Source: an uncultured Pseudomonadota bacterium
GTDB lineage: Bacteria > Babelota > Babeliae > Babelales > RVW-14
DNA length: 64,000 nt
NCBI GenBank assembly: GCA_964388745.1
Contig: CAYMBP010000004.1
Span: 7,430-71,429 of the forward strand
Direction of reading: 5' to 3'
Position 1 is the first letter of the stretch. Every line of letters starts with the position of its first letter. Shown here piece after piece: positions 27,248 to 39,971 of this stretch. The notes beneath the pieces were generated by a model. It saw only the letters and a program-made list of their open reading frames with translations. It was not told the DNA's origin and ran no database searches. The position numbers were made by a program, and so were the translations under genes.

Positions 27248-28624
27248 ATGGCAGAGCCTACTGGTCAACTACGTGTATCATCTGTGCAGTCATCAACACC
27301 GTCGGTAACTGGTAGAGCAATGCCTGTAAGTATAGAGGCTGAAAAATCTGTACTTGCAGCTCTTTTATTAAATGATGACAACCTCACTCTTGTTGCAGAT
27401 TTTTTAAAACCTGTTGATTTTTCATTAAAATCGCATCAACTAATTTATCAAGCAATTCTTGATGTTGCTCAGCAGAGTCAAAAAGTTGATATTGTTGTAC
27501 TAAATGATTACTTTGAGCGGCAACAGCAAGTTGATGATATGGGAGGAGTGGGGTATCTTCTTGAGCTTCAAGAAGATATTCCTTCTGTTGGTCTTATTCA
27601 ACAACATGCAAAAATTGTTAAAGATAAAGCAATCTTGCGCCACTTAATTACTGCAGCTTCAGATATTATTGGTACTTGTTATGATAATAATATTGATGAA
27701 GTTGATGTTGTTCTTGACAAGGCTGAACAAAAAATATTTCAACTCGCGAGCAAGATAGCTCCACCATCATTTGTCCAGCTTAATGTTATTTTGAAGCAAG
27801 CTTTTCATAATCTTTCGCAAATGAAATCAACCCAGCAGGGTGTTACCGGTGTTTCAACAGGATTTGTGCAGTTTGATGAAATGACGTCAGGTATGCAAAA
27901 AAGTGATTTACTTATTTTAGCTGGCCGTCCATCAATGGGTAAAACTGCATTAGCTCTTAACATTGCTCTTAACTCATGGAGAAATGGTCATGCCGTTGGT
28001 ATTTTTTCTCTTGAAATGTCATCTGAGCAATTAGTGCTTCGTATGTTATCATCAGAGAGTTGCATTCCTTATCAAAAAATTCGGAATGCACAATTATCAT
28101 CTGAAGAATTTATGGAAATGACTGATACTGCAGCTCGACTAGCAGAAGCAAAAATATTTATAGATGATACGCCTTCATTAAATATTATGGAATTGCGAGC
28201 AAAAGCTCGTAAACTTAAGTCTCAAGTTGACCTTGAACTCATAGTTATTGATTACTTGCAGTTACTTAATTCACATCAGCGCCATGAAAATAGAACACAA
28301 GAAATTTCAGCTATCTCTCGTTCACTGAAGGCTCTTGCTAAAGAGCTTGATATTCCTGTGCTAGCCTTGTCTCAGTTATCTAGATCACTTGAAACGCGCA
28401 TGGATAAACGTCCTATGTTATCAGATCTTCGTGAATCTGGAGCGATAGAGCAAGATGGAGATGTTATATTTTTTGTTTATCGAGATGTGGTTTATAATCC
28501 AGATACAGAATATCCTGATCATGCAGAAATAATTATTGGCAAACAGAGAAATGGACCTGTTGGATCATTTCATGTTGGCTTTCATGGAGAAATTGCTCGA
28601 TTTGCTGATCTTCAAGGAGGATAA
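27248..28624 (+). CDS. dnaB: replicative DNA helicase DnaB
   Basis: 458 aa with PVSIEAEKSVLAALL, Walker A GRPSMGKTALALN, VIDYLQLL and QLSRSLE. Confidence 0.95.
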   Translation: MAEPTGQLRVSSVQSSTPSVTGRAMPVSIEAEKSVLAALLLNDDNLTLVADFLKPVDFSLKSHQLIYQAILDVAQQSQKVDIVVLNDYFERQQQVDDMGGVGYLLELQEDIPSVGLIQQHAKIVKDKAILRHLITAASDIIGTCYDNNIDEVDVVLDKAEQKIFQLASKIAPPSFVQLNVILKQAFHNLSQMKSTQQGVTGVSTGFVQFDEMTSGMQKSDLLILAGRPSMGKTALALNIALNSWRNGHAVGIFSLEMSSEQLVLRMLSSESCIPYQKIRNAQLSSEEFMEMTDTAARLAEAKIFIDDTPSLNIMELRAKARKLKSQVDLELIVIDYLQLLNSHQRHENRTQEISAISRSLKALAKELDIPVLALSQLSRSLETRMDKRPMLSDLRESGAIEQDGDVIFFVYRDVVYNPDTEYPDHAEIIIGKQRNGPVGSFHVGFHGEIARFADLQGG

Positions 28625-28647
28625 GCGTTAAAGAGGAAAGGATTGAA

Positions 28648-29154
28648 GTGAAAGAAGAGATTATTCTTGGAATTGACCCAGGATTTTCGGTAACAGGGTT
28701 TGGTGTTATTAAAAAAAATCATACAACAGCACAACTTAAAGATTGTGGTTATTTAAAAATGAAATCAACTGATAGCTTATCTAAGCGAATAGGGCAGTTT
28801 TATGATTTTTTTATTGAGAAAATTAAATTGCATGCAATAACAATGATAGCTTTAGAGACTCCATTTTTGGGAAAAAACACTCAGTCTTTTCTTAAGCTTG
28901 GCTATCTTCGAGGGATCTTATATTTGTTGGCAGAGCAGCATCAACTCTTATTATCCGAATTTGCCCCACGCCAGGTTAAAGCAGCCGTAACAGGTTCTGG
29001 TGCAGCAACAAAAGACCAAGTTGCCTTTATGGTCATGAGGCTTTTTCCTAAAGTTCAGGAATACAAAGCAGCTCAAAAACAAGACGTTACAGATGCTTTA
29101 GCTGTATCACTTTGTGGATTTTGGCATAGTCAGGCGCAACAACCGCGCGTATAA
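28648..29154 (+). CDS. ruvC: Holliday junction resolvase RuvC
   Basis: 168 aa with ILGIDPGFSVTGFGVI, ALETPFLGKN and the C-terminal DVTDALAVSLC. Confidence 0.9.
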   Translation: MKEEIILGIDPGFSVTGFGVIKKNHTTAQLKDCGYLKMKSTDSLSKRIGQFYDFFIEKIKLHAITMIALETPFLGKNTQSFLKLGYLRGILYLLAEQHQLLLSEFAPRQVKAAVTGSGAATKDQVAFMVMRLFPKVQEYKAAQKQDVTDALAVSLCGFWHSQAQQPRV

Positions 29155-32516: not shown

Positions 32517-32565
32517 CTTAAAAAGCAGACAATCCCTATAAGTTTAATTATAAAAGGAGAGCATC

Positions 32566-33477
32566 ATGACGAATGAAGAATATGTAGTTCAATTTCATAC
32601 TTATTTATTAACAGAAAAGCGAGTCTCAAAGAATACGCTTGATGCTTATAATCGAGATATTCAGCAATTTGTTATCTATTGTCAAGAACATGAGCTAGAG
32701 TTTAACACTCTGAAAAAAAATGATTTAACAAAATTTCTTGCTTTTCATAAAAGAAGTGGAATTAAATCTCGCAGCATTGCACGAAAGATATCTTCACTTA
32801 AACAACTATTTGCTTATCTGCATGAAAATTATCAAATAGAAAACATTGCAAGCCTACTCTCAACACCTAAAATAGAACAACACTTGCCCACTTATTTAAC
32901 AGAACAAGAAGTTCAAAAATTACTTATTGCAGCACAAAAAGATATAACTCCAAAAGGAGTCCGTGATAAAGTTATGCTCTACCTTTTATATGCATCTGGA
33001 CTTCGTGTCTCAGAACTTGTTGAATTAACGGTTAATCAAATTCGCTTTGATACAGGATTTGTACAACTTATGGGCAAAGGAAAAAAAGAGAGACATGTGC
33101 CACTGCCTCGTAATATGATTGATCTTTTACGTCATTACTGTGATACGATCAGGCCGGAGTTTACTAAAAGTTTTCAGGAATCTCCTGATCACATGTATCT
33201 CTTTCCTGTTATATATCGCAAAAGTATTAAGCCAATCTCGCGACAACTTTTTTGGCTTTCACTCAAAAAATTATTGGCACAAGCTCAATTATTTAAAAAT
33301 GTCTCTCCCCACACTCTACGACATTCGCTTGCAACTCATTTACTAAAAAATGGAGCAGACATTAGATCACTTCAAATGCTTTTGGGACATGAAAGTCTTG
33401 CAACCATTCAGATTTACACCCACCTAGATAAAAGCGATATCAGAAAAGTATACGACAAAAAACATCCAAGAGCATAA
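32566..33477 (+). CDS. xerD: tyrosine site-specific recombinase XerD
   Basis: 303 aa with NTLDAYNRDIQQF, ASGLRVSELVELT, HTLRHSLATHLLKNGADIRSLQMLLGHESLATIQIYTH and a C-terminal ...KKHPRA like E. coli XerD. Confidence 0.85.
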   Translation: MTNEEYVVQFHTYLLTEKRVSKNTLDAYNRDIQQFVIYCQEHELEFNTLKKNDLTKFLAFHKRSGIKSRSIARKISSLKQLFAYLHENYQIENIASLLSTPKIEQHLPTYLTEQEVQKLLIAAQKDITPKGVRDKVMLYLLYASGLRVSELVELTVNQIRFDTGFVQLMGKGKKERHVPLPRNMIDLLRHYCDTIRPEFTKSFQESPDHMYLFPVIYRKSIKPISRQLFWLSLKKLLAQAQLFKNVSPHTLRHSLATHLLKNGADIRSLQMLLGHESLATIQIYTHLDKSDIRKVYDKKHPRA

Positions 33478-34581
33478 CTATTGCTTGTTAAGATAAACTC
33501 GCTGAGCCGTAACAGCATCAAGAATAGGTGTATTAATTGGACAAGTAAGAAAAACTTGAAATTGTAATGAATTAATTAAATTAAGGCACGAGCCAATACG
33601 CTGTGCATCAAAATCTGTTACAAAATCATCAAGAAGTAAAACGCCAGCCTCTCCTGTACTATTTGTCTCTTGAATTTGGGCAATTTTTAAGAGAAAAGTT
33701 AATAATTTTTGCTGACCACGAGACGCAAAAATGCGTGCCTTTTTATGCTCAAAAAGCAAGATAAAGTCATCAAGGTGGGCCCCAAAAAGAGTTCTTCCAT
33801 AACGCAACTCTTGCTCTAAGTTACGATTACTCCATCTACTCCAAAAAACATCAAAATCACTTTCATCCTTCATGCCTTTTTTTTGATATTGAGTACTAAA
33901 GCTTTGTTCATCAAATCCAGGAAAATAATCACTCAGCAATAAACTAATTCTTTTTTCAAGTGAATCAAGGTAATGACATCTCAATTTTTGAAGCTCGAAA
34001 GAAGCTTCCCATAATTTGTTGCTCCACAAATACATTTCTTTATGAAAATAACTATCCCTTAGACTAGATTGGCCACGATGAATAAGTGCATTACGATGAG
34101 CAAGTATTTGCTTATACTCTTTGAATGTAGCCAAAATTGATGGATCAATTAAAAATAAGGAATAATTTAAGAAATCACGTCGATATTCAGGAGCCCCACT
34201 TACCAATTCACTATCTTGGGCACAGAGCGTAACAATGCGATGCTGATTGATTAATTCTTTATATGAGGAAATTTGCTTGCCATTGAGAAGAACCTGCTTC
34301 CCTGTTTTTTGTGAAAAACCAGCCTTAATACTCTCATCAATATCGTGAGAAGTATTGTTGGCCTGAATTTCAATAAAAAAATGGTCTCCATCAATCTTAA
34401 CAAGATCTCGATTCAGATGAGTACGAAACGAGCGAAGATAACAGCTATAATGAATAGCTTCCAGCAAAGAGCTTTTACCTGAGCCATTATCTCCTTGAAT
34501 AATGATACATCGCTCACTAAAGGAAAACAACGCATCATCAAAACATCTAAAATTTTTAAGTCGAACTGAGTTAATAATCAC
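33478..34581 (-). CDS. recF: DNA replication and repair protein RecF
   Basis: 367 aa with VRLKNFRCF and Walker A GDNGSGKSSLLEAI. Lies directly downstream of dnaN. Confidence 0.9.
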   Translation of the reverse strand: MIINSVRLKNFRCFDDALFSFSERCIIIQGDNGSGKSSLLEAIHYSCYLRSFRTHLNRDLVKIDGDHFFIEIQANNTSHDIDESIKAGFSQKTGKQVLLNGKQISSYKELINQHRIVTLCAQDSELVSGAPEYRRDFLNYSLFLIDPSILATFKEYKQILAHRNALIHRGQSSLRDSYFHKEMYLWSNKLWEASFELQKLRCHYLDSLEKRISLLLSDYFPGFDEQSFSTQYQKKGMKDESDFDVFWSRWSNRNLEQELRYGRTLFGAHLDDFILLFEHKKARIFASRGQQKLLTFLLKIAQIQETNSTGEAGVLLLDDFVTDFDAQRIGSCLNLINSLQFQVFLTCPINTPILDAVTAQRVYLNKQ

Positions 34582-34589
34582 GTAACTAA

Positions 34590-35711
34590 TTAATTCGGGC
34601 TACTCATTGAAATGGGCATAACCAAGTAGGTAAAATGATAATCTTCTGTTTCAGTCTCAAAAATAATAGGTTTAGCACCACTTTTGATATAAAAATTTAC
34701 TTGCTCATCGGGAAAAACATGAAGTCCATTAAGCAAATAAGGAGAATAAAATCGACTTTCTACAGGATCTGCTTCATATGCCTCAAGCGCAATGTTTTCT
34801 TCGAGCTTTCCTACATCTTTATTATATAGCTTAACATTCATGATTCCTGGTGAAAACGTAAAGCTTGTTGAAACAAATTGCCCAGAAAGTAAGCAGCCTG
34901 TCCGCTTAAGTGTCTTGACAAACGGATCCCGGGCTAGTCGAGCTGGAACAAAATCTTTTTTGTCCATAACAGCTTCATATTGAGGAAAAGCATCTGCAAT
35001 GAGCTTGGTAAAGAAATTAAAATGTTCGCCCGAAAAAACAAGCTGGTTGCCACACATTCCAAGAAAAATTGGAACTGAAGGATTACTCTCAACAAGTTTT
35101 TTTACTTCCATGACTGCTCGCTTTGGAATGAGCCACTTCTTATTTTCATTAAGGGAATATTGTGATGACTCAATTTTGGCAAGACAATGGCCATCAGTTG
35201 CCACCATAGACATTTTTTCTTCATTAACTTCTAACAACATACCATTAAGTGCATTGTTCGCATTATTTTGAGGAATAAGAAATGCAACTTTATTGAGCAA
35301 TTTAAGTAAACCTGCACCTTCAATTCCCATCATATTTTCAATTCGCTCTGGAAAGGGAGGAAAATCTGATGAATCCTTAATGTTCAAAGCAAGGTCAACA
35401 CCATTTGAAGAGAGGTGAAGTTGACTATCTTTAAGGCTAAACAATATCTCACCATCCATCTCTTTGACAATATCAAATATACGCTTTCCCGGAATAAGAA
35501 AACTTGTTGTCTCATTTGAATTGCTTTCAATAGCCATTGTTGACTGCAAACTAATCTCAAGATCTGTTGCCTTAAGAGTAAGCTCTCGTGGTGTAATTTG
35601 AAATAGAACAGTCTCTGTTACCGAAAGCGTTGTACGTTTATTACAAATGGGTTGCATTGAGGAAAGCAAAGTAAGAAGCTCTTTCTGCTTTGTAGTAAAA
35701 GTTACATTCAT
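34590..35711 (-). CDS. dnaN: DNA polymerase III beta sliding clamp
   Basis: 373 aa. The N-terminal region ...LTLKATDLEISL is typical of beta clamps. dnaN-recF synteny. Confidence 0.9.
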   Translation of the reverse strand: MNVTFTTKQKELLTLLSSMQPICNKRTTLSVTETVLFQITPRELTLKATDLEISLQSTMAIESNSNETTSFLIPGKRIFDIVKEMDGEILFSLKDSQLHLSSNGVDLALNIKDSSDFPPFPERIENMMGIEGAGLLKLLNKVAFLIPQNNANNALNGMLLEVNEEKMSMVATDGHCLAKIESSQYSLNENKKWLIPKRAVMEVKKLVESNPSVPIFLGMCGNQLVFSGEHFNFFTKLIADAFPQYEAVMDKKDFVPARLARDPFVKTLKRTGCLLSGQFVSTSFTFSPGIMNVKLYNKDVGKLEENIALEAYEADPVESRFYSPYLLNGLHVFPDEQVNFYIKSGAKPIIFETETEDYHFTYLVMPISMSSPN

Positions 35712-35903
35712 AATACGTTATGATGCCTCGTTAAAAGGTGGAAAATACGAACAAGCTACGACAGCAAAGTGTATCATGATCAGACATAAAATTAAAGCAT
35801 TATCACAATAGATAACCATACTTTTTTCTATCTGTTTATTAACCCTTTGTACGTTACAATATTTTATACTTATATAATTTACACAATCTTAAAAAGATAA
35901 TCA

Positions 35904-35931
35904 TTGACTTTCAATAATTAGTCGTTATAAT
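35904..35931 (+). promoter_or_regulatory. near-consensus sigma70 promoter with no ORF downstream
   Basis: TTGACT (35904..35909), 16-nt spacer, TATAAT (35926..35931). The next + strand ORF is more than 600 nt away. The first terminator downstream is at 36174..36207. Confidence 0.5.
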
Positions 35932-36093
35932 TTGTAGACATTTTCATATTTCAATGGTTTTACCAACTTTTCAATACTGTATCATTTATATAATTTTGAA
36001 AAAATCAGGTTATCATACTCAATCATTAATATAAAAATTATATTAGAATAATTTTCTTGAAATGCACGATAAATAAAAGATTTTAAAAAAAAT

Positions 36094-36121
36094 TTGATTT
36101 TTTAAAAAGTATAAGTAAACT
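36094..36121 (+). promoter_or_regulatory. promoter of candidate sRNA copy 1
   Basis: TTGATT (36094..36099), 16-nt spacer, TAAACT (36116..36121). Confidence 0.4.
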
Positions 36122-36127
36122 TGTATT

Positions 36128-36207
36128 CAAGATCTTAAATAAGACTTCATTACTACTCTCCTTTCTCCTTTTTCCGCCATACAAGTTTTCTTGTGTGGCG
36201 GTTTTTT
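36128..36207 (+). ncRNA. candidate ~80-nt sRNA, copy 1 (CU-rich anti-SD-like core plus intrinsic terminator)
   Basis: A 44-nt block at 36141..36184 is identical to 36380..36423 and contains CTCTCCTTTCTCCTTTTTCC. The terminator is a 12-bp stem at 36174..36201 with loop TTTT, followed by T6. Confidence 0.45.
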
Positions 36208-36329
36208 ATGCTTGCCTTCATATAAACCAGATATTTTGCTTCTTAAGCTGCCTACAAGGGGCGGTAATTAATTTCTATGGTTAAATTTTCACCAATTACG
36301 GCTTTTTTTAAGCATTTTAACTATTTCCC

Positions 36330-36357
36330 TTGATTTTTTTATGTAATCATGTACAAT
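36330..36357 (+). promoter_or_regulatory. promoter of candidate sRNA copy 2
   Basis: TTGATT (36330..36335), 16-nt spacer, TACAAT (36352..36357). Confidence 0.45.
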
Positions 36358-36363
36358 ATAAAC

Positions 36364-36446
36364 ATATTCATTTGAAATAAAGACTTCATTACTACTCTCC
36401 TTTCTCCTTTTTCCGCCATACAAATTCTTTTGTATGGCGGTTTTAT
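36364..36446 (+). ncRNA. candidate ~80-nt sRNA, copy 2 (paralog of copy 1)
   Basis: Same 44-nt core (36380..36423). The terminator is a perfect 12-bp stem at 36413..36440 with loop TTCT, followed by TTTTATTTT. The innermost stem pair, adjacent to the loop, differs from copy 1 by a compensatory G-C to A-T change. Confidence 0.45.
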
Positions 36447-36553
36447 TTTATTTATAAGAGACTTGCTTGAACTTTTTTACGTATTATGCCAAAATACGCT
36501 CGTTAGCATTGTAGGTTTAAGGTGGGCTAAAAAAAGTAAAGGGGAATAAAATA

Positions 36554-38251
36554 ATGAATCTCTATGTCAAAAGCATAATTCAGTTCTTTTTATCTTTTAC
36601 AATGTTCGCTCATAGCCTTCTTCAAGCAAATAATCTATCTGTTCAGGTAGTGCAAAAATCTCAAAAAAAGAACCAGATCCCTTATCAAGCAAAGCTTTTT
36701 TTACTGTCTCAAGGGCTTGAAAGAGACGAAGATATAAGACAGATAGAGACAATTGATAAATATGCACCATTACCAATTTCTTCTTATCTTAAAAATGCTT
36801 CATTTGAAGGAAAGTATGAGCAAATAGCTCAAGTTCCCCTTGTCGTCAATGGGGAGATTATTAACCACATCTTTATTGGTTTAGGAAAGCCTGCAAAAAA
36901 TATAGATGACTCTTGTGAATATCTTAGGCGATCCATAGCCTCGGTTATGCCTCTTGTTAAAAATCTTAAAATAGCCCATCTACTGGTAGAAATTCCACGA
37001 TATCTTGAAGAAATTTGTAAGCGGACTTATGAGGAGTTAGTTCGAGAGTGCAGCTTAGCAACTCTCATGCATGATTATAGTTATGACGAATTTAGACAAT
37101 CAAAAAAAAATGATAACGATTTTCATCCAATTATTACATTTCTTATACCAGAGAATAAAGAGATGGAGTTTGTTGAAAAAGCATGCAAAGAAGCTAGTAT
37201 TATTGCAAGCTCATTAAATGAAGCTCGATGTTGGATGGATGGTCCAGCCAACAAGGTGACACCTACCTTCATGGCAGAGCAAGCAAAAAAAATTGCAGCA
37301 AGAAATGAGAATCTTGTTTGCCATATTCTTGAAGAATCTGATGCAAAAAATCTTGGGATGGGGGCTTTTCTTGCTGTAAGTAAAGGATCATCACAATCTG
37401 GAAAAATTGTTATTCTTGAATACAAAAGTGACAGCCCACATGCTCAAACAATTGCCCTATGTGGTAAAGGAATTACGTATGACACAGGAGGGGTTTCACT
37501 TAAAACTCCTGGAGCTATGCTTGGCATGAAGTATGACATGTGTGGTGGTGCGTCTGTTTTAGCGATTATGAATCTTGTTGCTCAATTTAAGCCACATTGC
37601 AATGTTATTGGCATTGTCCCATTTGCTGAAAATATGCCAGATGGCAATGCGTATCGTGAAGATGATATTTTAACAGCCATGAACGGCAAAACAATTGAAG
37701 TAATCACAACGGACGCAGAAGGTAGGCTTGTTTTAGCAGATGCTTTATGTTATGCAGAAAAGGTATATCATCCGGATATTATAATTGATATTGCTACACT
37801 AACAGGAGCTTGCCCTAATGCTGTTGGTCGTTTTTATACAGCCTTCATGACAAAAGACTCTGACCTCATGCAATTACTTCAATTCTATGGGTATAAAACA
37901 GGGGACCGCATGTGGCCACTTCCATTTCATGATGATTATAAAAAAGCTAATAAATCTGATATTGCCGATGTAAAGAATAAGGGATCTTATCAATATCAGG
38001 CTTATTGCATTGAGGCTGGAAAATTTCTTGAAAACTTTGTTGAAAATGCTCGGTGGGCACATCTTGATATTGCAGGATCTGGATGGAGTGCCCCTGGTAT
38101 TAATTATTTAGGTAATGGAGCAACTGGGGCGGGCATAAGAACTATTTTATATGTTATTATGAATTACAGCGCTCAAGCTCGCTTATATAAAGAAATCAAT
38201 GAATTTCATTACTCACAGGCAAAGGAGAAAGAAGCTGCTCTTGCGGCTTAA
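36554..38251 (+). CDS. pepA: M17 leucyl aminopeptidase with N-terminal signal-like segment, paralog 1
   Basis: 565 aa with GKGITYDTGGVSLK and TTDAEGRLVLADAL (variant of the NTDAEGRL signature). N-terminal IIQFFLSFTMFAHSLLQA. Confidence 0.9.
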   Translation: MNLYVKSIIQFFLSFTMFAHSLLQANNLSVQVVQKSQKKNQIPYQAKLFLLSQGLERDEDIRQIETIDKYAPLPISSYLKNASFEGKYEQIAQVPLVVNGEIINHIFIGLGKPAKNIDDSCEYLRRSIASVMPLVKNLKIAHLLVEIPRYLEEICKRTYEELVRECSLATLMHDYSYDEFRQSKKNDNDFHPIITFLIPENKEMEFVEKACKEASIIASSLNEARCWMDGPANKVTPTFMAEQAKKIAARNENLVCHILEESDAKNLGMGAFLAVSKGSSQSGKIVILEYKSDSPHAQTIALCGKGITYDTGGVSLKTPGAMLGMKYDMCGGASVLAIMNLVAQFKPHCNVIGIVPFAENMPDGNAYREDDILTAMNGKTIEVITTDAEGRLVLADALCYAEKVYHPDIIIDIATLTGACPNAVGRFYTAFMTKDSDLMQLLQFYGYKTGDRMWPLPFHDDYKKANKSDIADVKNKGSYQYQAYCIEAGKFLENFVENARWAHLDIAGSGWSAPGINYLGNGATGAGIRTILYVIMNYSAQARLYKEINEFHYSQAKEKEAALAA

Positions 38252-38327: not shown

Positions 38328-39971
38328 ATGAACAAGCATTTTTGCTTAATAGTTTTTCTATTTCTTTTTCCTGGAGTAATACCTTTTAGCAATGGCAAGG
38401 CTGCACCATTTAATGAAAATCATCTCTTCTTGGAAGTTAAAGAGTGTCAACAGCTCCCAGTTACTCACCATATTTCCTATGAAGCAAAGCTATTTTTAAT
38501 GAGTGAAGGATTTAAATATGCAGATGATGCTCAAACGATTGAAGAAATTAATGCATATTCTTCAACCCCGATAGAAGAATATTTTAAAATAAAGAACTTT
38601 GAAGGAAAATATGAGCAGGTAATCGAAATTCCTTTAAATGTTGATGGTAAGTTGATTGATCATATTTTTGTTGGGCTTGGAAAACCAAACACCTATCCTG
38701 ATACAGCATGTGAGTATTTTCGTCGATCATTTTCATCAGTTATTCCTCTTATGAAAAAAAACAAAATAATAGACCTTGCAACTTGTTTGCCAAAATTCTT
38801 AGAAAAATGGTGTAACCGATCATATGCAGATCTTATTTATGAAGCGGGCCTTGCAGCACTTCTCCACTATTATGATTATGATGACTATAAAAGCGAAAAA
38901 AATAGGCATAATGCTTCTATCACATTTTGTCTTTCTGAAGAAGATTTTGAGTATCAAAGAGAGGCTGAGCAATCTTCTATAATTGCAACAACAGTTGCGC
39001 ATTCAATGAACGCAGCAAGGAATTGGATGGATGGTCCAGCAAATTTAGTTACACCTTTATTTATGGCACAACAAGCTGAAATGATTGCGAAAAAACATGA
39101 TAACTTAACATATCGGGTTCTGAATGAAGAAAGTGCTACAAAGCTTGGAATGGGAGCTTTTATGGGTGTATCACAGGGCTCTTCAAATCCTGGCAATATT
39201 GTCATTCTTGAATATTATTGTGATGATGATGCACCAACAATTGGGTTATGTGGTAAAGGAATTACATATGATACTGGTGGCGTTTCACTCAAACCACCGA
39301 GTGCTATGCTTGGCATGAAATATGACATGTGCGGTGGCGCATCTGTTTTGGCTATTATGGACCTTGTTGCCCAGTTTAAACCACATTGTAATGTTATTGG
39401 CATAGCCCCATTTGCTGAAAATATGCCAGACGGTAAATCTTACCGAGAAGATGATATTTTAACAGCTATGAACGGAAAAACAATCGAAATTATTAACACA
39501 GATGCTGAAGGCCGATTAGCTCTAGCCGATGCATTATGCTACCTTGAACAAGAATATAGACCTGACGTAATTTTTACTATTGCAACACTAACAGGAGCAT
39601 GCTTACATGCAGTTGGTCATGAATACACAGCCTTTATGACTCAAGACACAGAGCTCTTGCAACTTCTACAACGATATGGAAATAGAACAGGAGATAAAAT
39701 GTGGCCACTGCCATTTCATGATGACTATATGAAAGCCAATCACTCAAGCGTTGCTGATGTTGCTAATGCTGGTTCAAAAAAATATCAAGCTGGCAGCATT
39801 GTTGCTGGAAAATTTCTTCAAAATTTTATTGAAAATGCACGCTGGGCACATCTTGATATAGCCGGTGCTGCATGGGGCTCAACTGATATAAATTACGTAG
39901 GACAAGGAGCAACAGGAGCGAGTATCAGAACGCTTATTCATGTAATTATGGATTTCAGTCAATATAATTAG
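38328..39971 (+). CDS. pepA: M17 leucyl aminopeptidase with N-terminal signal-like segment, paralog 2
   Basis: 547 aa with GKGITYDTGGVSLK and NTDAEGRLALADAL (exact M17 signature). N-terminal FCLIVFLFLFPGVIPFSNG. Collinear with paralog 1 over its whole length. Confidence 0.9.
   Translation: MNKHFCLIVFLFLFPGVIPFSNGKAAPFNENHLFLEVKECQQLPVTHHISYEAKLFLMSEGFKYADDAQTIEEINAYSSTPIEEYFKIKNFEGKYEQVIEIPLNVDGKLIDHIFVGLGKPNTYPDTACEYFRRSFSSVIPLMKKNKIIDLATCLPKFLEKWCNRSYADLIYEAGLAALLHYYDYDDYKSEKNRHNASITFCLSEEDFEYQREAEQSSIIATTVAHSMNAARNWMDGPANLVTPLFMAQQAEMIAKKHDNLTYRVLNEESATKLGMGAFMGVSQGSSNPGNIVILEYYCDDDAPTIGLCGKGITYDTGGVSLKPPSAMLGMKYDMCGGASVLAIMDLVAQFKPHCNVIGIAPFAENMPDGKSYREDDILTAMNGKTIEIINTDAEGRLALADALCYLEQEYRPDVIFTIATLTGACLHAVGHEYTAFMTQDTELLQLLQRYGNRTGDKMWPLPFHDDYMKANHSSVADVANAGSKKYQAGSIVAGKFLQNFIENARWAHLDIAGAAWGSTDINYVGQGATGASIRTLIHVIMDFSQYN

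Follow-up and report, generated by a model that had tools for sequence, protein, structure and literature searches.

Tandem units beside dnaN as predicted genes of a previously undescribed small RNA family conserved across the Dependentiae

What do two closely similar units, standing in tandem in the spacer beside dnaN, encode? The question arises from the 64-kb window analyzed here (the whole stretch of DNA; GC content, ∼34%), in which an AT-rich spacer of 842 bp (35712-36553) lies between dnaN on the minus strand and the first M17 aminopeptidase gene on the plus strand. A first-pass annotation of this DNA had described twin ∼80-nt units with an identical 44-nt block in the spacer and had put them forward as candidate paralogous small RNAs (sRNAs). 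That proposal is borne out by the recurrence of the same layout of promoter, core, and terminator at more than 100 loci of the Dependentiae (TM6/Candidatus Babelota), with overwhelming covariation in the hairpin and conserved adjacency to recF. This phylum, whose members parasitize protists as obligate intracellular bacteria, is widespread and has hardly been cultured, and its reduced genomes have few recognizable regulators. We conclude from the sequences that the two units are predicted genes of an sRNA family that is previously undescribed and conserved across this phylum. We put at roughly 0.6 the probability that they are sibling genes of a trans-acting base-pairing sRNA, which would act as a translational repressor at initiation regions.

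The two units and their homologs

The repeat itself was confirmed. The 44-nt block AAGACTTCATTACTACTCTCCTTTCTCCTTTTTCCGCCATACAA is present in two exact plus-strand copies, at 36141-36184 and 36380-36423, where none is expected (100 shuffles), and the similarity between the two units reaches 65 nt at 94% identity. The units and the elements assigned to them are as follows.

36128..36207, plus strand: predicted small RNA, copy 1 (∼80 nt; ends placed by the -10 hexamer on the 5′ side and by the T-run on the 3′ side)
36364..36446, plus strand: predicted small RNA, copy 2 (∼83 nt; from the covariance model and fold)
36145..36173, plus strand: conserved core (seed) of copy 1, predicted to be unpaired; CUUCAUUACUACUCUCCUUUCUCCUUUUU, antisense to a Shine-Dalgarno (SD) sequence plus 7 nt plus AUG-AAG
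36384..36412, plus strand: conserved core (seed) of copy 2, predicted to be unpaired; same sequence as in copy 1
36174..36207, plus strand: intrinsic terminator of copy 1 (12-bp hairpin at 36174-36201, then TTTTTT)
36413..36444, plus strand: intrinsic terminator of copy 2 (12-bp hairpin at 36413-36440, then TTTT)
36094..36121, plus strand: promoter-like site of copy 1 (TTGATT-N16-TAAACT)
36330..36357, plus strand: promoter-like site of copy 2 (TTGATT-N16-TACAAT)
35904..35931, plus strand: third promoter-like site (TTGACT-N16-TATAAT)

Both copies end, as had been described, in a 12-bp hairpin and a T-run, and both hairpins are G+C-rich. The compensatory change reported at the loop-proximal stem pair was found again, the pair being G-C in copy 1 and A-T in copy 2; a further pair is U.G in copy 1 versus U-A in copy 2. 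In the predicted folds, the terminator is the sole stable structure, and the CU-rich stretch is single-stranded in both the minimum free energy and the centroid structure (z = -6.3 for copy 1 and -6.8 for copy 2). The units contain no ATG-initiated ORF (open reading frame) on the plus strand, and no tRNA or tmRNA was found in the 64-kb window.

The proteins closest to the window's DnaN are labeled Candidatus Babeliales, Dependentiae, or candidate division TM6, and the window is assigned to a Dependentiae (Babeliales) genome. The first homologous units were found on contigs carrying DnaN relatives. Two copies lie upstream of dnaN in L003 (DnaN 73% identical) and downstream of recF in L006 (a 1.35-Mb contig), while L008 and L010 have one copy each. 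The contig of the closest relative, L002 (DnaN 85% identical), stops before the position expected for a unit, and the L004 and L005 contigs break within one. Five short-read contigs in all (L004, L005, L016, L017, and L038) end inside a unit, which is consistent with assembly breaks at a tandem repeat and implies that automated annotation of metagenome-assembled genomes (MAGs) often misses the locus.

Two scans extended the family. One genome per GTDB species was searched with the pattern CTCCTTTCTCCTTTT-N0-2-CCGCC, which gave 39 loci; 33 belong to low-GC Dependentiae-type MAGs whose DnaN and RecF are 41 to 73% identical to those of the window, and the other 6, which are high in GC and lack a hairpin, were rejected as chance matches. 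A metagenome scan with the 5′ part of the core, TCATTACTACTCTCCTTT, gave at least 120 loci, 80 of which (L051-L130) were searched with a covariance model. About three-quarters of these 80 carry family members, more than 54 of them with a short core. Most metagenome members have this shorter form, GGCUUCAUUACUACUCUCCUUUUUUCC followed by a hairpin and T-run, and come from more distant Dependentiae (DnaN 46 to 60% identical). The remaining metagenome loci are from unrelated bacteria, where the 18-mer lies antisense to a genuine SD-ATG region.

The covariance model, a check that the first-pass annotation had proposed for homologous intergenic regions, was built from 42 units. At a threshold of E < 1e-5 it found at least 112 instances in 100 sources, across Dependentiae genomes and metagenomes; 107 are distinct (51 long-seed and 56 short-seed). 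The window contains exactly two copies (36134-36212, 95.4 bits, E = 3e-21; 36373-36451, 96.5 bits, E = 1.5e-21), and the next matches, at ≤21 bits, are only the palindromic hairpin on the other strand. Each locus has 1 to 3 copies at one syntenic site. Tandem pairs spaced ∼225-290 nt apart recur in several lineages, and stem sequences are common to the paralogs of any one genome, a pattern suggestive of concerted evolution or repeated duplication. In the clade of the window, the CUCCUUU motif is duplicated internally, and the gene often stands in two tandem copies.

The family core, GCUUCAUUACUACUCUCCUU(UCUCCU)UUUUCC, is near-invariant and unpaired, with at least 95% identity per column over 26 nt among the 107 distinct sequences. 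The pattern of each scan specified no more than one half of the core, and the opposite half was conserved regardless: CTTCATTACTACT is present in 39 of the 42 units found via the 3′ pattern, and TTTTCC plus the hairpin in units found via the 5′ pattern. In the 107-sequence alignment, each of the 12 terminator pairs shows changes on both sides, and pairing is kept in 98.7% of cells, compared with 28 to 47% in slid controls, and none of 500 shuffles was as good. That alignment was fitted to the covariance model, which favors the structure, and the result agrees with an independent MAFFT alignment analyzed with RNAalifold, in which 6 of the 12 pairs show compensatory changes.

The promoters are the part of the layout for which the earlier description had to be amended. 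Promoter-like sites precede both copies as stated, but the equal distance claimed for them does not hold; the -10 hexamer and the 44-nt block are separated by 19 nt in copy 1 and by 22 nt in copy 2, a similar rather than equal spacing. The near-consensus third site at 35904-35931 is also present (11 of 12 consensus positions), and no terminator lies between it and copy 1; the longer isoform that the first-pass annotation had considered may exist. As a class, promoter-like matches occur at chance level in this AT-rich region (9 found versus 10.6 expected). Upstream of homologous units, TTG..-N15-18-TA...T was found in 89 of 104 distinct cases versus 6.8% of random windows, and TTGATTTT in 32% of units versus a background of 1.4%. 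This evidence consists of matches to a sigma-70-type consensus, and transcription of the units is predicted on that basis. The 5′ part of the RNA is variable, with 18 to 100 nt between the -10 hexamer and the conserved core across homologs. Taken together, the units have their own promoter (by consensus), a Rho-independent terminator, and an accessible conserved seed, and they are noncoding on both strands, as is expected of trans-encoded sRNAs.

Several further observations concern the 5′ regions and paralogs. The spacer TTGATT-TTCTTATAGAAT-N4-TAnAAT is conserved upstream of many long-seed homologs (L013, L014, L022, L032, L034, L037, L040, and others) and contains a TTCTnnnAGAA palindrome, which may be a regulator-binding site; the two copies in the window retain only TTGATTTT of it. 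The sequences TTGACTTT (35904-35914) and ATATTAGAA (∼36040-36050) are common to the window, L003, and L004, the three genomes with an inverted dnaN-recF. On the opposite strand, TTGAAA-N17-TAAGAT (35914 to 35886), a possible promoter of dnaN, overlaps with the third promoter-like site. Short-seed paralogs, with CAUUACUACUCUCCUUUUU, a different hairpin, and a TTGACT promoter, stand between recF and the main copy at L031:2803-2880, L047:5245-5317, and L022:6968-7042 (minus strand), so both seed types coexist in these long-seed genomes. Many relatives have an extra 5′ hairpin that is absent from the window copies. In several homologs (L013:7582-7700 [minus strand] and upstream in L023), a GA-rich 5′ hairpin or segment (GAUAGGUGAGU or GGAGAGG) is predicted to pair with the seed and may be a self-masking element, likewise absent from the window copies.

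Complementarity of the seed to translation initiation regions

The core contains CUCCUUUCU, the anti-SD sequence that the first-pass annotation had recognized in it. It shares this sequence with the canonical 16S rRNA 3′ tail, which ends in ...CACCUCCUUUCU-3′. No 16S rRNA sequence was found in the window or in the 170 fetched loci. The complementarity to ribosome binding sites of many genes here, also claimed at first pass, was upheld, as GGAG, GAGG, or AGGA occurs at -22 to -4 of 22 of the 46 large ORFs in the window versus 9% of random positions. Conservation runs 12 nt further in the 5′ direction (CUUCAUUACUA) and is as strong there as in the SD-complement. The whole core is antisense to AAAAAGGAGAAAGGAGAGUAGUA-AUG-AAG, i.e., an A-rich enhancer, an SD sequence, a 7-nt spacer, a start codon, and a lysine codon, and the complete initiation region mirrored by the seed is 5′-AAAAAGGAGAAAGGAGAGUAGUAAUGAAG-3′.

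The mechanism that we propose follows this anatomy. Each gene would be transcribed from its own sigma-70-type promoter to its intrinsic terminator, giving an RNA of ∼80 nt. The terminator hairpin, as the only stable structure, would leave a 29-nt pyrimidine-rich stretch unpaired, and this stretch would pair with the SD sequence and start codon of a target mRNA and block 30S binding. The CUCCUUU duplication and the tandem gene copies in the clade of the window would raise pairing strength or dose. The best-supported conserved candidate target is ruvC, encoding the Holliday-junction resolvase, at the dnaB-ruvC junction, and xerD is a second, weaker candidate; both belong to the replication/recombination cluster that houses the sRNA gene.

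Duplex energies were calculated for the 26-nt family seed against positions -40 to +30 of homology-defined starts of conserved neighboring genes in all loci.

ruvC: n = 33, median duplex -19.5 kcal/mol
xerD: n = 35, median duplex -13.5 kcal/mol
dnaN: n = 58, median duplex -9.6 kcal/mol
dnaB: n = 22, median duplex -9.3 kcal/mol
proS: n = 14, median duplex -8.3 kcal/mol
recF: n = 71, median duplex -7.7 kcal/mol
Random windows: n = 1500, median duplex -7.7 kcal/mol (5th percentile of -13.8 in a 591-window control)

For ruvC, the real seed was better than 100 of 100 composition-matched shuffles of the whole seed (-15.25 ± 1.06) and 100 of 100 shuffles of the non-SD half alone (-16.45 ± 0.83). For xerD, 0 of 100 whole-seed and 3 of 100 half-seed shuffles were as good as the real seed. 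These results indicate that the signal is not purine richness or SD strength alone. GAGAGT, GAGTAG, or AGAGTA is present in 14 of 33 ruvC regions versus 2.2% of random windows. Examples of ruvC regions are those of L124 (AAAAAGAGAGUAGUAGUAUG), L133 (AAAAAAAGGGAGAGUAGU), L121 (AAAAAGAAAGAGUAGGGAAUGAAG), and the long-seed species L021 (AAGGAGAUAAGGAGAGAGUAUG, with a doubled box). When ORFs were clustered without regard to function (9 clusters, each from at least 8 loci), ruvC was the outlier, with 76% of its regions reaching -16 kcal/mol or lower versus 22% of the background; the figure for xerD was 46%. The gain from having the long seed was a median of 2.6 kcal/mol for ruvC regions of long-seed species versus 0.4 in short-seed species (one-sided P = 0.02), and coevolution of the seed and the ruvC initiation region is possible.

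The window itself offers three initiation regions for comparison.

28613..28658, plus strand: candidate target, dnaB-ruvC junction and ruvC initiation region; predicted duplex of -20.9 kcal/mol
32551..32579, plus strand: candidate target, xerD initiation region (AAAAGGAGAG ... AAUGAAG); predicted duplex of -17.6 kcal/mol
36530-36562, plus strand: initiation region of the first M17 aminopeptidase gene (pepA1); predicted duplex of -18.0 kcal/mol

A number of points weigh against the proposed mechanism and its targets. Among the 46 initiation regions of the window, ruvC ranks only 5th and xerD only 7th, with pepA1 6th. The SD sequences of ruvC are unusually strong (-11.4 in the anti-SD control), which makes the signal partly generic, and about a quarter of the ruvC regions pair poorly. 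Some ruvC sites lie partly within the 3′ coding end of dnaB, where another constraint is possible. One lineage (L010, L015, and L049) has replaced the 5′ half of the seed and kept the SD-complementary half and the terminator. The species are phylogenetically related, so the P values overstate independence; the target evidence is computational and covers genes within ∼10 kb of the sRNA in the fetched loci; and the transcript ends are those suggested by consensus motifs. With these points set against the complementarity, we regard ruvC as a tentative target, one whose odds of being genuine fall somewhat short of even. More speculative is a phylum-wide RNA brake on recombination resolution, in which the sRNA would directly repress translation of RuvC and of XerD, the dimer-resolving recombinase, and uncouple ruvC from dnaB within the dnaB-ruvC operon, the seed and ruvC having coevolved (long seed with doubled purine boxes); we consider this conceivable but rather doubtful. 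To our knowledge, no sRNA control of ruvC or xerD is known in any bacterium.

Two other searches concern complements elsewhere. Matches to AAGGAGAGTAGTAATGAAG at 15 or more of 19 positions were sought in 1.1 Mb of the relatives' loci, and nothing conserved was found. The best non-self complement of the seed in the window, GGGAGAGTGGGGAGAGTAGTG at 60430-60455 on the minus strand (-30.2 kcal/mol versus a mean of -7.3 and a standard deviation of 3.8), lies just 3′ of a 66-codon ORF (60666 to 60469) and outside any initiation region. It may serve as a target or sponge site.

Neighborhood of the units and rival explanations

The genes around the units, with the conserved neighborhood marked by dnaN and recF, are as follows.

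33478..34581, minus strand: recF
34590..35711, minus strand: dnaN, flanking the spacer
36554..38251, plus strand: pepA1, M17 leucyl aminopeptidase gene, the first of two tandem paralogs, downstream of the units
38328-39971, plus strand: second M17 leucyl aminopeptidase gene, tandem paralog

In relatives, the usual order is dnaN-recF, often preceded by proS-xerD, then the co-oriented sRNA, and then ruvC and dnaB (with or without rplI) pointing toward it. Most relatives (L006, L008, L010, L034, and others) have the full order proS-xerD-dnaN-recF-sRNA followed by inverted ruvC and dnaB. recF is the co-oriented upstream neighbor of 55 of ∼80 informative units among the loci listed, with ruvC and dnaB beyond the sRNA. 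In the clade of the window (the window, L003, and L004), dnaN-recF is inverted, and the units therefore face away from dnaN. The window has dnaB-ruvC at 27248-29154, 7 kb from the units, then proS-xerD, the inverted recF and dnaN, and the sRNAs; the promoter-like sites of its units are kept despite the inversion.

The side of the locus that lies downstream is variable. Of 86 informative cases, 36 have a downstream gene of opposite orientation, and pepA follows the units only in the window. This bears on an alternative that the first-pass annotation had kept, a tandem attenuator or leader of the aminopeptidase gene, which fails as the primary function given that the downstream gene differs or lies on the opposite strand in ∼40-50% of relatives. 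Read-through into whatever gene lies downstream could still occur. In a short-seed subclade (L051, L096, L116, L088, L105, and others), a conserved gene of ∼385 aa lies ∼50 nt downstream on the same strand; its product has no Pfam match and an N terminus that looks hydrophobic by eye, and some of its initiation regions complement the seed (e.g., AAGGAGAGUAUAUG in L116).

Other features of the neighborhood were noted. The two M17 paralogs are 565 and 547 aa long, and in both the Pfam match to the M17 N-terminal domain begins at about residue 65 to 75; the N-terminal segment outside this match may be an export signal. Cumulative GC skew over the whole window climbs to ∼30-42 kb and then drops, a terminus-like switch of leading strand near the xerD/dnaN/sRNA locus, with no DnaA-box cluster. 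DnaA boxes are not enriched in the window (9 matches versus 18 expected), and none lies in the intergenic region; a replication origin was rejected on these counts. Upstream of dnaN, L002 has another promoter-terminator unit (positions 1-250, minus strand of the locus; TTGACA-N17-TAAAAC, ∼110 nt, hairpin CCAGAGAG...CTCTCTGG and a T-run), possibly another small RNA.

Could the core act without specific targets, as an abundant RNA that competes globally with the 16S 3′ tail, e.g., in a developmental or stress transition of intracellular bacteria? The presence of CUCCUUUCU, with CUCCUUU found twice in the clade of the window, is what such a mimic would have, about half of the genes here use SD motifs, and the part that persists in the lineage lacking the 5′ half is the SD-complementary half with its terminator. 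Both the motif and the gene duplication would suit a stoichiometric, dose-dependent mode, and genuine SD-AUG regions of unrelated bacteria have the same 18-mer as their reverse complement. We nevertheless consider this explanation unlikely, because the 12 nt on the 5′ side of the SD-complement are equally conserved and give specific complementarity to ruvC and xerD, which argues for targeted pairing rather than pure 16S-tail mimicry, and because most of the conserved genes tested (recF, dnaN, proS, and dnaB) pair no better than random sequence. The generic SD-sequestering mimic of the first-pass annotation is thus supported in part, in its SD complementarity more than as pure mimicry of the 16S tail. 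A pyrimidine tract of this kind could also bind a protein (S1, Hfq, a KH-domain protein, or a cold-shock protein), making the RNA a sponge or a ribonucleoprotein component. That 26 nt are near-invariant across lineages with DnaN only ∼50% identical and GC contents of 20 to 49% is unusually strong for a regulatory sRNA, and a search of 1.1 Mb of the relatives' DNA yielded no extended complement at other places. However, the locus has no candidate protein linked to it, the tract is precisely antisense to SD, spacer, and AUG, and protein binding does not predict the specific complementarity to ruvC and xerD; we give it a slightly smaller chance than the global mimic.

The explanations that would tie the units to an adjacent gene or to no function are less probable still. 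As a cis-acting leader or tandem attenuator, the units would govern read-through into the downstream gene. In the window, pepA1 has the orientation of the units and starts 108 nt past the second terminator, with no strong promoter detected in the interval, and its initiation region can pair with the seed (-18.0); the downstream gene of the short-seed subclade is a comparable case. Against this, the downstream gene varies by lineage and points the other way in 20 of 41 long-seed and 16 of 45 short-seed cases, recF on the upstream side is the neighbor that stays constant, the sequence shows no evident antiterminator pairing as an alternative, and short-seed examples have promoter-like sites between the terminator and the downstream gene. 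A dedicated pepA leader is therefore not what the units are, and we regard cis control of this kind as improbable. The minus strand of the block reads AAAGGAGAAAGGAGAGUAGUA-AUG-AAG, a textbook initiation region, and might serve a small protein (MKS...) or a type I toxin as ribosome binding site and start. Here the minus-strand ORFs are 4 to 30 codons long and conserved in neither length nor sequence, their ATG is missing in L010, L015, and L049, the T-run (3′ of the hairpin in all members) and the promoters are on the plus strand in all homologs, and a test for type I toxin-antitoxin systems found no conserved small ORF beside the units on either strand; coding on that strand is accordingly very improbable. 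The least probable explanation is a nonfunctional dispersed repeat or duplicated terminator remnant. The sequence is indeed repeated and breaks short-read assemblies, but its copies number just 1 to 3 at each locus and 2 in all of the 64-kb window, and its fixed syntenic position, purifying selection on the core, compensatory stem evolution, and conserved promoters all speak for function. The concern raised at first pass, that the block might be a generic dispersed repeat lacking a conserved promoter and terminator context, was not borne out in the window and the homologous loci.

Significance and relation to known regulatory RNAs

A base-pairing sRNA of this kind would be the first regulatory RNA for the Dependentiae. 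A search of the literature on small or noncoding RNAs of Dependentiae/TM6 found nothing relevant, no Rfam 15 family reached its gathering threshold anywhere in the window, and a relaxed scan of the region turned up chance-level matches only, none with an E value below 2. The invariant seed of 26 nt, the fixed address, and the more than 100 homologs rank the family with the best-supported predictions of sRNAs that can be made from sequence alone, and its covariance model is ready for annotating Dependentiae genomes. If the link to ruvC and xerD is true, the family would be a conserved case of RNA-level control over recombination-resolving enzymes.

The family is new, and the kind, a base-pairing translational repressor, is known. 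In RsaE, a pyrimidine-rich seed is reported to block formation of the initiation complex (PMC9266662). RsaE/RoxS (RF01820) of the Bacillales resembles the present RNA in being a taxonomically broad sRNA of ∼100 nt with unpaired C/U-rich motifs directed against G-rich SD sequences and an intrinsic terminator. There is no homology between the two (17.1 bits versus a gathering threshold of 79, E = 4.3), and RsaE/RoxS belongs to another phylum and another neighborhood, that of the present RNA being recF-ruvC. The UCCC motifs of RsaE are in loops and linkers of two hairpins, whereas the present RNA has one long linear tract that also covers the spacer and start codon.

Among the alphaproteobacteria, CcsR ("cuckoo"), NfeR1/alpha-r14, and AbcR carry repeated CCUCC-type anti-SD motifs in hairpin loops, occur as tandem sibling genes, and repress by SD occlusion. 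The Rfam scans showed no homology to these RNAs, and the present motif lies within a linear antisense of 26 to 33 nt to the whole initiation region. IhtA of the Chlamydiae is an sRNA conserved across a phylum of obligate intracellular bacteria that represses a specific mRNA (hctA) by pairing around the start codon. Its sequence and target are unrelated to those of the present RNA, and no Rfam match to it was found here. The 16S 3′ tail differs in context, since the present RNA lies outside any rRNA gene, its tract precedes the hairpin where in 16S rRNA helix 45 precedes the tail, and its flank is ACUACU rather than GAUCAC. The present RNA is set apart from the pyrimidine-rich-seed repressors by its linear antisense of an entire initiation region, its phylum-wide conservation, and its fixed address in a replication/recombination cluster.

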